From an uncultured Candidatus Actinomarina sp. (lineage in GTDB: Bacteria; Actinomycetota; Acidimicrobiia; Actinomarinales; Actinomarinaceae), in NCBI GenBank assembly GCA_902578135.1, contig CACHBU010000004.1, positions 8,120 to 72,119 of the forward strand: DNA of 64,000 bases, in the 5' to 3' direction. Both the position numbers and the translations under genes were made by a program. The notes below the pieces were generated by a model. The model was given only the letters and a program-made list of their open reading frames with translations, was not told the DNA's origin and searched no databases. Positions 54,826-58,660 of the stretch are shown here, in pieces. The stretch's first letter is position 1, and the number at the start of each line of letters is the position of its first letter.

Positions 54826-55809
54826 ATGATAAAAAATTTATCTCCTTCAAGAGCATCTCAATTTAAAACCTGTCCCAAGCAATTTAAATTCGCAAATGTT
54901 GATAAATTAAAAGAACCTACAAATGAAGTTCAAGCAAAAGGTACTACTGTACATCAAGCACTAGAAGATTTGTTTGATTTGCCAAAAGAAGAGAGAAGTA
55001 TTGAAAAACTACATAATTTATTTCGAGATGCGTGGACAAAAGTTAGAGGAAATGATGAACATCATAATTTATTTTCAAATGTAGATGAAGAAAGAGAATG
55101 GGGTGTTGATGGTCTTAAATTGCTTAATAATTACATGGAAATAGAAGACCCTACAAGTTTTGAACCTTTAGAGCGCGAGCGTTGGGTAAGAGGCTCAATC
55201 AATGACTTAAATTTAAGAGGTATCTTGGACAGGATGGATAGAAATAAAAATGGTGATTTAATCATTGTGGATTACAAAAGTGGAAAAGCTCCTATGGCTA
55301 AATATAAAGAACCTAGATTTTTTGCTTTAAAATTATATGCGCTTCTAATCAAAGAAGAGCTCGGTGAGATGCCAGTTGAGCTAAAGTTAATTTACCTCAA
55401 AAATTCAACTATTCACACATTGAAAATAACCGAAGAAGATTTATCAAATGCAAAAAATGAAATTTTAGAAATTTGGGAAAATATAAAAAAAGCATATGAA
55501 GAGAATGAGTTTCCTGCAATAAAAAATACATTGTGTGACTGGTGTTACTACAAACCAATCTGTCCAGTATTTAATGAAAATGCTCCAAATACCGAAAATC
55601 TCAGAATTATAAACGAATCAATAGCTGAATTAGTGGAAGAAATTGAAGTTCTAGACATGTTTAAAGATGATGATAAAATTCCAGTAGATAGTCCGATTGG
55701 AAACACTAACAGAAAAGATATTGAATCAAAAATTTCTGAATTAGAAAATCAAAAAAATGAAATTCAAACTGAAATCGAAAAGCTTTTAAGGGAACAGTCC
55801 TCTAGTTAA
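54826..55809 (+). CDS. PD-(D/E)XK RecB/Cas4-like nuclease with Fe-S cysteines and a C-terminal coiled-coil tail
   Basis: Contains LSPSRASQFKTCPKQF, GILDRMD...IIVDYKSGK (D..(D/E)xK) and CDWCYYKPICP (CxxCx5C). The last ~80 aa are acidic and coiled-coil. Confidence 0.8.
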   Translation: MIKNLSPSRASQFKTCPKQFKFANVDKLKEPTNEVQAKGTTVHQALEDLFDLPKEERSIEKLHNLFRDAWTKVRGNDEHHNLFSNVDEEREWGVDGLKLLNNYMEIEDPTSFEPLERERWVRGSINDLNLRGILDRMDRNKNGDLIIVDYKSGKAPMAKYKEPRFFALKLYALLIKEELGEMPVELKLIYLKNSTIHTLKITEEDLSNAKNEILEIWENIKKAYEENEFPAIKNTLCDWCYYKPICPVFNENAPNTENLRIINESIAELVEEIEVLDMFKDDDKIPVDSPIGNTNRKDIESKISELENQKNEIQTEIEKLLREQSSS

Positions 55810-57051: not shown

Positions 57052-57131
57052 AAGCTCATCATATATAGGTTTTGGCTAGAAAGGTTGTTATTTTATTTTT
57101 TTTGTCTCACTGAATTTCTAAATTATTAAAT

Positions 57132-57248
57132 ATGAAAGATAAAGAAATACTTAAATTACTTGAAACGTCCGGGATCAAAGCAAATTTTATTTGTATAGAC
57201 CACAATGACAGATGCAATTGTCATAGAATATATGATGAAGCAGCATAA
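57132..57248 (+). CDS. candidate 38-aa Cys/His mini-protein
   Basis: ATG ORF MKDKEILKLLETSGIKANFICIDHNDRCNCHRIYDEAA, ending 13 nt before the next gene. No clear SD, so it may not be translated. Confidence 0.3.
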   Translation: MKDKEILKLLETSGIKANFICIDHNDRCNCHRIYDEAA

Positions 57249-57261
57249 ATTAGGAGAATAG

Positions 57262-57783
57262 ATGAAAGATTTGATCTGGGATATTGCCAAAAGTGGAGAA
57301 GAAGCTCTAGAAAACACAGAACTACAAACAATTGAAGAACCTAAAGAATTGTTTGTAGCTAGAGGAGTTTCTATAGAAGCAAAAGATAGTACTTATAAAA
57401 TCAATAAATTTGTAGATAATAAAATTGCACTCGATGTTCAAGAAAAAGGAGCGATAAAAATATCTGATACTGTCTTTAATTACTCTAAAAGTTACAAATC
57501 AAAAACTCTAGATTTAAAAAAATTAATTGATTGGGCTACCAACAAGAAACTTTCAGATGATGATATTGAAAACTTAGTAGCGCTTTGTGGAAATACTTTT
57601 GTACCAAAATTAAGGGGCCTTGATGCAGTTGCAGAAAAAAAAGGAATGGATAAACAACTAGCAAGAGATACTTTTATAGAAAAAATTTGGGATGAGGAAC
57701 CTAAATTACAAGTTATTAAAACAAGCAATGATACCGCTCCAGTATGGGCGAAAGATTTGAAAGAAATGGAGAGAAGAAAATGA
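57262..57783 (+). CDS. hypothetical protein, translationally coupled to the Rad52-like gene
   Basis: 173 aa with a strong SD (AGGAG) 7 nt upstream. The stop overlaps the next ATG (ATGA). I recognise no motif in it. Confidence 0.7.
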   Translation: MKDLIWDIAKSGEEALENTELQTIEEPKELFVARGVSIEAKDSTYKINKFVDNKIALDVQEKGAIKISDTVFNYSKSYKSKTLDLKKLIDWATNKKLSDDDIENLVALCGNTFVPKLRGLDAVAEKKGMDKQLARDTFIEKIWDEEPKLQVIKTSNDTAPVWAKDLKEMERRK

Positions 57784-58208
57784 AACAATTGTATGAACTA
57801 TCAAGAAAATTTCCAAAAGATTGGATAAAAAAAGCACCTAAGGGCAAGTTTGGAAATTACGTTCCACATCCAGTAATTACACAACGTCTATTAGAAGTTT
57901 GTGGACCTTTTAATTGGGAAGTTGTTGAATTGATCAGACAGGAAACTACAGGAACAGTAGTAGGTTGCTTTGGAAAATTGACCGTTGAAATTGATGGCAA
58001 ATTAGTCACCGTAACATCTATCGGTGACGTAGAGCACGATCAAAAAAATGATGGTAGTAATGCAAAGCATGCAGAGTCAGATTCTTTCAAAAGGTGTGCG
58101 ATGAAACTCGGGCTTGGATTACATTTATGGGCTGGAGAAGAATATTATCTTGATAAACAACTTGATAAAAAAGAAGTAGGAAAAAAAACTAAGCTTCAAT
58201 CTGCTTGA
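57780..58208 (+). CDS. Rad52/Rad22-Sak-DdrA-like single-strand annealing protein
   Basis: 142 aa containing GNYVPHPVITQRLLEVCGPFNWEVVE and AKHAESDSFKRCAMKLGLGLHLW. These parallel the RAD52 blocks [20 protein letters not shown] and [23 protein letters not shown]. Confidence 0.75.
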   Translation: MKQLYELSRKFPKDWIKKAPKGKFGNYVPHPVITQRLLEVCGPFNWEVVELIRQETTGTVVGCFGKLTVEIDGKLVTVTSIGDVEHDQKNDGSNAKHAESDSFKRCAMKLGLGLHLWAGEEYYLDKQLDKKEVGKKTKLQSA

Positions 58209-58660
58209 TCAATTAACTCACCATTTCTAGCAGTCAACACAAAGGTTGCAGGACCATCATTGATTAAACCTACATCCATCATGGCGCCGAAGCTTCCAGT
58301 CTTTACAGTTACATGTTGAGAAAATGCCTGAACAATTTTTGAAATCATCTCTTCAGCAATTTCTGGAGATTTTGCTTTTACAAACGAAGGCCTATTCCCT
58401 TTTAGAAATTTTCCAGCTAACGTGAACTGACTAACAATTAATATCTCTCCTGATATGTCTACTATTGATTTATTCATTTTTAAATTTTCATCAGAAAAAA
58501 CTCTAAAATTTAAAATTTTATTTATCAGAATATCACTTTCAACTTCAGAATCAGCTTCTTCAATTCCCCATAAAAGTAAATAGCCGTGATTAATTTCTGA
58601 AATAATACTTGAGTCAACTTTTACGTAAGCACTTTTAACTCTCTGCAAAACAACTTTCAT
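58196..58660 (-). CDS. dtd: D-aminoacyl-tRNA deacylase
   Basis: 154 aa starting MKVVLQRV, with SQFTL and NDGPATF. Confidence 0.94.
   Translation of the reverse strand: MKVVLQRVKSAYVKVDSSIISEINHGYLLLWGIEEADSEVESDILINKILNFRVFSDENLKMNKSIVDISGEILIVSQFTLAGKFLKGNRPSFVKAKSPEIAEEMISKIVQAFSQHVTVKTGSFGAMMDVGLINDGPATFVLTARNGELIDQAD

Follow-up and report, generated by a model that had tools for sequence, protein, structure and literature searches.

What is a Rad52-type single-strand annealing gene doing in the chromosome of Candidatus Actinomarina, a bacterial lineage of the surface ocean that is among the most abundant there and also among the most reduced, with a genome of about 1 Mb? To our knowledge, bacterial annealases of this type are almost always phage cargo, DdrA of Deinococcus being the familiar host-owned exception. 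The question was raised by a stretch of 64,000 nucleotides (nt) from an uncultured Candidatus Actinomarina sp. (assembly GCA_902578135.1, contig CACHBU010000004.1; hereafter the window), in which three open reading frames (ORFs) of 38, 173 and 142 codons follow each other in close succession on the + strand. The last of these encodes a protein with the modeled N-terminal annealing fold of Rad52, preceded by the genes for a partner protein and a Cys/His microprotein. In the Actinomarinales, this cassette is a fixed chromosomal operon under purifying selection and not a prophage. Its elements are listed below, with lengths in amino acids (aa) and isoelectric points (pI) of the products.

57103..57124, + strand: predicted promoter, with TGTC at 57103-57106, a 12-nt spacer and the -10 hexamer TAAATT at 57119-57124, preceded by a T-tract
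57132..57248, + strand: 38-codon micro-ORF for a probably metal-binding Cys/His microprotein; without annotation in public records
57252..57256, + strand: Shine-Dalgarno sequence AGGAG, 5 nt 5' of the partner start codon, as read from the sequence
57262..57783, + strand: partner protein gene, 173 aa, pI 5.5, uncharacterised annealase-associated family
57780..58208, + strand: Rad52-fold single-strand annealing protein gene, 142 aa, pI 8.9

The annealing protein and the cassette layout

The 142-aa protein matched the Pfam family Rad52_Rad22 (PF04098) over residues 6-121 with an E-value of 1.4e-5 (25.5 bits, with a cut-off of 20.3), and it also matched PHROG 3290, 'single strand annealing protein' (1e-12), and the phage annealase family PHROG 1097 (5e-10). 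An AlphaFold model built with 34 homologues had a predicted local distance difference test score (pLDDT) of 89 and a predicted template modeling score (pTM) of 0.81. It consisted of a helix (residues 30-41), three long strands (45-53, 60-71 and 74-83) and a long helix (91-109), which is the arrangement of helix, curved three-stranded beta-sheet and long helix of the N-terminal annealing domain. Foldseek comparison with the PDB returned yeast Mgm101 or human RAD52 as all of the best 16 matches, 15 of them with E-values ≤0.001. The top match was Mgm101 (9yi9; E 2.7e-6, template modeling score (TM) 0.60), and human RAD52 was matched through 5jrb, 8bjm and 8rjw; as a group, these eukaryotic proteins were the best structural matches, with a TM of about 0.6 and E-values of 1e-4 to 3e-6.

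Alignment to the N-terminal domain of human RAD52, the sequence of which was checked against PDB chain 1H2I_A, placed Y27 at Y65, D101 at D149, K104/R105 at K152/R153 and G111 at G159. The counterparts of Tyr65 and Lys152/Arg153 were conserved among the 34 homologues, with R105 invariant and Y27 and K104 each at least 90% conserved. Identity to RAD52 and Mgm101 was 15-17%, and, in contrast to them, the cassette protein lacks the C-terminal regions that bind RPA and Rad51. The profile match and the model thus agree with the Rad52-type fold that the initial annotation had assigned from motifs, and by them the protein is a Rad52 N-terminal annealing fold carrying the conserved Lys-Arg pair of the groove for single-stranded DNA (ssDNA).

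Public gene calls place the start of this gene at ATG 57744, so that the product has 154 aa and the gene overlaps that of the partner by 40 nt. All 33 of the aligned homologues begin at the methionine at 57780 (M-x-QLYEL), and the 57780 start is therefore the better one, in agreement with the 142 aa first proposed. The fold, the profile match and the Lys-Arg pair are shared with the phage Rad52-family annealases (Sak of the lactococcal phage ul36, Marvin gp63 and PHROG 3290), although the cassette protein is shorter than Marvin gp63 (142 versus 350 aa). Several phage homologues end in acidic/aromatic C-terminal tails (...EEPF, ...DW); the chromosomal Actinomarinales proteins have no tails of this kind, their last residues being K-L-Q-S-A or similar.

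The genes of the cassette are tightly arranged. The stop codon of the micro-ORF is separated from the partner ATG by 13 nt, and the AGGAG layout before the partner was also present in loci L001 and L004. The ATG of the Rad52-like gene overlaps the TGA of the partner gene (GAAAATGAAAC), indicating translational coupling, while the 3' end of the Rad52-like gene overlaps dtd by 13 nt. The window is AT-rich, with a GC content of about 32%, and the cassette (0.29-0.36) has the same composition as its surroundings. The ORFs, the ATGA coupling, the overlap with dtd and the native composition were all as the initial annotation had described them.

A fixed chromosomal locus with relatives in phages

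When one genome of each GTDB species was scanned, Rad52-like copies at 75-99% identity were found in 57 Actinomarinales genomes, with the next best matches at ≤53%. The protein of the window was 99% identical to the copy in OCS155/Candidatus Actinomarina single-cell genomes. In these 57 species genomes, all three cassette genes are syntenic between glutamate dehydrogenase and dtd, and the gene order was identical wherever the contig reached far enough. To the left it reads aminotransferase, inositol-1-phosphate synthase, PD-(D/E)XK nuclease, glutamate dehydrogenase (opposite strand) and cassette; to the right, the cassette is followed by dtd (opposite strand), PNPOx, 3-hydroxyacyl-CoA dehydrogenase and acyl-CoA dehydrogenase. 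Two of the neighbors are the following.

54826..55809, 2 kb upstream of the cassette: PD-(D/E)XK/Cas4-like nuclease (PDDEXK_1 4e-34)
58196..58660, opposite strand, convergent: dtd, D-Tyr-tRNA deacylase (Pfam Tyr_Deacylase 4.5e-51)

The range of identity of the Rad52-like protein across genomes was close to that of glutamate dehydrogenase (74-99%), and dtd was less conserved, ranging from 51 to 98%. All three reading frames were intact in 63/63 Actinomarinales loci, and the median pairwise ratio of non-synonymous to synonymous substitution rates (dN/dS) was lowest for the partner (0.07), followed by the Rad52-like gene (0.10) and the micro-ORF (0.37). No tRNA was found in the window, no att-like repeats flanked the cassette, and neither an integrase nor other phage genes lay around it, the neighbors being housekeeping genes. 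With its native GC and the same site in 57 genomes, the cassette does not have the features of a prophage or mobile element, and the earlier view that it was domesticated rather than recently acquired was upheld. Nor is the pair restricted to prophages and viral contigs: phages do carry it, but the Actinomarinales copy is fixed. The Actinomarinales genome paper makes no mention of the cassette or of DNA repair.

The nuclease at 54826..55809 had been proposed to act together with the annealase, in the manner of phage two-component recombination modules. Besides PDDEXK_1 it matched Cas4 (1e-6), and its cysteines, one N-terminal (FKTCPKQF) and three in a C-terminal CDWCYYKPIC (CxxCx5C), form the four-Cys pattern of the AddB/Cas4 iron-sulfur proteins. 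The nuclease is kept at the same position in all Actinomarinales loci, but this co-conservation means little because the whole neighborhood is syntenic. It forms its own transcription unit beyond the opposite-strand glutamate dehydrogenase, without the promoter motif of the cassette, and the nucleases of the phage modules are of other kinds than the Cas4-like one. An adjacent cognate exonuclease, a mark of the phage module, is lacking in the cassette, where the upstream gene is the partner. A functional link between nuclease and annealase is thus unsupported.

Relatives of the Rad52-like protein occurred in at least 328 IMG/VR viral contigs at 36-58% identity, never higher, and in phage-like metagenome contigs. 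The nearest cultured relatives were those of cluster-S mycobacteriophages; in the mycobacteriophage Marvin, the gene for the annealing protein gp63 comes after, and overlaps, that for the gp62 'exonuclease'. As in the cassette, phage Rad52-family annealase genes lie directly after an upstream module gene and overlap it; unlike them, the Actinomarinales copy is a single-copy core gene with neither an exonuclease nor an SSB as neighbor.

Viral partner genes were found by a local hidden Markov model search of the loci gathered with the Rad52-like alignment. The partner-annealase pair was present in 16 phage-like loci, namely 14 IMG/VR viral contigs and loci L088 and L089. In the latter two, a partner relative lies directly 5' of the Rad52-like gene (the L088 homologue scored 27.9 bits in Pfam), and each of the 14 viral partner genes ends where the Rad52-like gene starts. 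The phage-locus partners were 24-45% identical to that of the window, and 38-45% in the 12 marine, low-GC (34-37%) contigs among the 14. These 12 contigs with the pair (L145, L148, L154-L158, L160 and L162-L165) have a GC content near that of the Actinomarinales, and may be phages of Actinomarinales or of a related low-GC marine host.

Among the 98 non-Actinomarinales loci with an ORF upstream of the annealase gene, the partner family was the largest class (16), followed by a 75-aa ORF (15) and then by PD-(D/E)XK exonucleases. One viral contig contained the full module, consisting of an exonuclease (phrog_284, 2.6e-53), the partner, the Rad52-like gene and an SSB-like gene with a product ending in DEIPF (L162 4395-4835), of which the Actinomarinales retain partner and annealase only. 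Partner relatives also lie directly 5' of a RecT-like gene in L091 and L092 (phrog_561, 3.5e-27 and 1.9e-24), and in L090 a partner relative is followed by an unknown 121-aa gene and then by a NinG/Rap-type endonuclease. In L170, a true Sipho_Gp157 (Pfam 8.8e-10) takes the place directly upstream of the annealase. Outside the Actinomarinales, then, the partner family is known from phage contigs only, in the slot upstream of the annealase.

Partner protein, microprotein and promoter

The initial annotation had recognised nothing in the 173-aa partner, and searches of the window's partner against Pfam, PHROG and NCBIfam likewise gave no match; nor did 24 members of the family match any Pfam (up to E 10) or PHROGs family, including Sipho_Gp157 (PF05565) and Mu Gam (PF07352), two candidates that were rejected at the level of sequence. 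Searching 1.84 billion representative proteins with a profile recovered only 45 relatives, most of them Actinomarinales fragments and a few of them divergent proteins about 180 aa long. Two length classes were observed in L001-L064, 173 aa in the clade of the window and 186-189 aa in other clades, the difference being an N-terminal extension. These classes were 39-47% identical, while the adjacent annealase was at least 75% identical. Members of the family are mostly acidic (pI about 5-6.6), and conservation falls mainly on hydrophobic residues and Gly, without a catalytic set.

The AlphaFold model of the partner (pLDDT 90) consisted of a long helix (27-62), a three-stranded beta-meander, a four-helix bundle and a beta-hairpin. 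Among viral models, the best Foldseek matches were Caudovirales proteins without a name (E 1e-4 to 1e-3, TM 0.35-0.45), and weak matches were also obtained to parts of two actinophage RecB-like exonucleases, to a Sipho Gp157 model (E 0.044, TM 0.30) and to a host-nuclease inhibitor (E 0.13). An identity as a nuclease or nuclease domain was rejected, since hhalign comparison with the Marvin gp62 exonuclease and the PD-(D/E)XK protein of L007 gave nothing and no acidic, His or Lys residue was conserved across the whole family. The same comparison with the true Gp157 of L170 gave no signal.

In Firmicutes phages, the slot upstream of erf/sak4-ssb modules is occupied by Mu Gam-like, DUF2483, DUF1351 or Gp157 proteins, 'implying analogous function' (PMC8093625). 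The partner shares with these proteins the slot directly upstream of the annealase and the size (about 170-190 aa). It also has in common with them an N-terminal long helix that leads into beta elements, and an association with mixed annealase families. It differs from them in having no profile match and weak Foldseek similarity, and looks like a separate, unnamed occupant of the slot upstream of phage annealases. Pairing with two annealase superfamilies suggests a generic target (DNA ends, ssDNA-SSB or a host nuclease, for example), and we infer that the partner may act on something generic and not on one annealase fold.

The possible 38-aa Cys/His ORF of the initial annotation is a real coding gene. 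In the window it encodes MKDKEILKLLETSGIKANFICIDHNDRCNCHRIYDEAA. It was exactly 38 codons long with an ATG start in 63/63 Actinomarinales loci, with the consensus M-K-x3-I-x7-G-x6-C-x2-H-x-D-x-C-x-C-H-x5-A-A. Across these loci C21, H24, C28, C30, H31 and the C-terminal Ala-Ala were invariant and D26 was near-invariant, a pattern by which the microprotein is probably metal-binding. No match was obtained in Pfam, PHROGs, NCBIfam, PADLOC or the PDB, and the gene calls of the public contigs examined did not include the ORF. It is missing from every phage version of the module, which marks it as an addition of the host lineage. The possibility that the region is a known RNA was discarded, as no Rfam family was found. 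The microprotein terminates in EAA, KAA or DAA (57243-57248 in the window; same in 63 loci); this Ala-Ala end is similar to that of the ssrA degradation tag, and the microprotein may thereby be marked for rapid turnover.

Upstream of the micro-ORF, the 80-nt spacer varies freely from clade to clade except for one element. The motif TGTC-N12-TAnnnT was present in 53/53 distinct orthologous upstream sequences, with TGTC 28-30 nt before the micro-ORF ATG and the end of the motif 6-8 nt before it (7 nt before 57132 in the window). The conserved order is a T-tract, TGTC, two variable bases, an invariant A and then TAnnnT, and no sigma-70 -35/-10 pair was found on the + strand upstream of the micro-ORF. 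A distance of 7 nt from the -10 hexamer to the ATG predicts a leaderless mRNA. The in vivo consensus of the actinobacterial activator PafBC is tGTCgg(N10)tA(N3)T, where a -26 element replaces the -35 box and the GTC triplet is strictly conserved across Actinobacteria (PMC8635444); the trigger of PafBC is ssDNA (PMC11804915). The cassette motif has the geometry of this consensus and an invariant GTC, and, like the PafBC (RecA-NDp) promoters of mycobacteria, it places TAnnnT 12 nt after TGTC without a -35 box. It differs from them in the preceding T-tract, and is a candidate PafBC site. Damage-induced transcription would be the most economical reading of this promoter.

Neither recA nor pafBC was found within 10 kb beyond the window ends, a region that contains a UmuC-like/S24 pair on the left and only metabolic genes on the right. 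In a sibling single-cell genome (L175 3002-4838, some 6-7 kb to the left of where the window ends), this divergent pair consists of a UmuC-like Y-family polymerase (IMS, IMS_C, DUF4113) and a 171-aa S24 peptidase, separated by a 55-nt spacer with the near-palindrome GAATACTGTACACTATTC. A lone TGTC-N12-TAGAAT, read on the strand of the polymerase gene, also lies in the spacer, as may be expected by chance. Neither PafBC nor a proteasome is mentioned in the papers about marine Acidimicrobiales and the sister order UBA5794.

Origin and possible function of the cassette

On balance, the cassette is probably a phage-derived single-strand-annealing module that was captured by an ancestor of the Actinomarinales and kept as a core host operon. 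More tentatively, and as a possibility that we hold with clearly less confidence, it may be a break-survival system induced by an ssDNA signal, made up of a metal-binding microprotein, an end-handling family that serves both Rad52 and RecT proteins and a minimal Rad52 ring, which might replace canonical end-processing or end-joining functions that were lost as one of the smallest free-living genomes was streamlined. In the first of these readings, the operon would be transcribed as a leaderless mRNA beginning at the ATG of the micro-ORF, from a promoter in which a -26 TGTC element stands where the -35 box would be, as in the PafBC architecture. As PafBC is triggered by ssDNA, expression would rise after DNA damage, for example by ultraviolet (UV) light in surface waters. 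Rings of the basic Rad52-like protein would bind ssDNA and anneal complementary strands, leading to RecA-independent repair of double-strand breaks or gaps, or else 3' ends would be protected in the manner of DdrA. The role of the acidic partner would be that of the Gam, Gp157 or DUF1351 proteins of the same slot, protecting or preparing DNA ends or handing ssDNA to the annealase, and the Cys/His microprotein would probably be a host-specific metal-binding subunit or regulator.

Several results weigh against this origin and this mechanism. For the annealing protein, searches of PDB-chain sequences with the single protein and with the family profile gave no match, so that the Rad52 assignment rests on the Pfam profile and the fold similarity. 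An hhalign comparison of the family profile with human RAD52 gave a probability of 2.6%, which is weak alone, and the residue mapping consequently leans also on the fold match. The partner model had no match among solved structures (best E 0.8), its fold matches to viral models were weak overall (TM 0.30-0.47), and at the level of sequence no relation to Gp157, Gam or exonucleases was found. For the promoter, the bases after TGTC are (A/G/T)(C/T)A and not the GG of mycobacteria, and no second promoter-located copy of the motif, and hence no regulon, was found in the 64-kb window or the 12-kb loci. Finally, a rough neighbor-joining tree placed the partner-linked phage annealases apart from the Actinomarinales clade, in two separate clades (L088-L092, L141 and L152 versus L145-L165), neither of them sister to it. 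Joint acquisition of partner and annealase is not demonstrated by this tree, as a 140-aa protein is poorly resolved and no grouping was obtained. The split clades, together with the occurrence of the partner before either Rad52-like or RecT-like genes, suggest module shuffling.

DdrA of Deinococcus has been placed in the Rad52 family; it stands as a single gene, is induced by damage and has another regulator. Like the cassette protein, it is a chromosomal bacterial Rad52-family protein thought to serve host damage survival (read, for the cassette, from the predicted promoter), and the two share a Pfam family. The cassette differs from it in being an operon of three genes, two of them for the partner and the microprotein, and in having a PafBC-like promoter and a clear ancestry in phage modules. 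An unlikely alternative is end-capping, in which the Rad52-like protein would, as DdrA does, mainly bind 3' ssDNA ends and shield them from exonucleases until repair can take place, and the partner would be a second end-binding factor. The fold class, with its match to PF04098, is that of DdrA, a minimal protein of 142 aa without a C-terminal domain would fit such a role, and the exonuclease and SSB partners of the phage module have not been retained. However, the closest relatives are phage annealases in exonuclease-annealase-SSB modules and the Lys-Arg pair of the annealing groove is conserved, and the present data do not separate annealing from protection.

Use against phages, by superinfection exclusion or as a decoy against recombination-dependent phage replication, was considered improbable. 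The module is clearly phage-derived, and conflicts between phages and hosts are known both to target phage recombinases and to involve them as players (PMC11846896, PMC8093625). Yet none of the three proteins matched a PADLOC defence model, and the locus lies between housekeeping genes at a position that is invariant across the order and in no variable island. Strong purifying selection and 75-99% identity are also unlike fast-evolving defence genes.

About equally improbable is a role in recombination or replication, either as a helper that integrates ssDNA at forks, as in recombineering, or in replication restart, adding to the strong signal of homologous recombination reported for Candidatus Actinomarina populations and not to damage repair as such. 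Phage annealases are well known to promote ssDNA integration in recombineering, which speaks for such a role, but the conserved -26 TGTC promoter points to regulated and not constitutive expression, no uptake or competence genes were seen nearby, and the link to population recombination is purely circumstantial. That the cassette is a decaying prophage remnant without host function is highly improbable: all relatives outside the Actinomarinales are indeed in phage or phage-like contigs, but the loci are intact throughout with dN/dS values of 0.07-0.37, the Rad52-like protein is conserved like glutamate dehydrogenase, the promoter is conserved, and native GC is combined with a lack of integrase, att sites and other phage genes.

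New in the phage-derived host operon are a host-owned Rad52-type annealase from a phage module, an undescribed helper family and an unannotated microprotein, behind a predicted damage-type promoter in one of the most reduced genomes of free-living bacteria. Two of the three genes lack a family, and the micro-ORF is uncalled. The partner family offers a handle on the poorly understood slot upstream of annealase genes, across two annealase superfamilies, and minimal annealase-plus-helper pairs are of practical interest for recombineering in Actinobacteria. If the reading of the promoter is true, marine Acidimicrobiia also have PafBC-type control. Genes that persist in a genome of 1 Mb are presumably needed, and the cassette would then represent a repair or recombination route of these abundant bacteria that standard annotation has missed.

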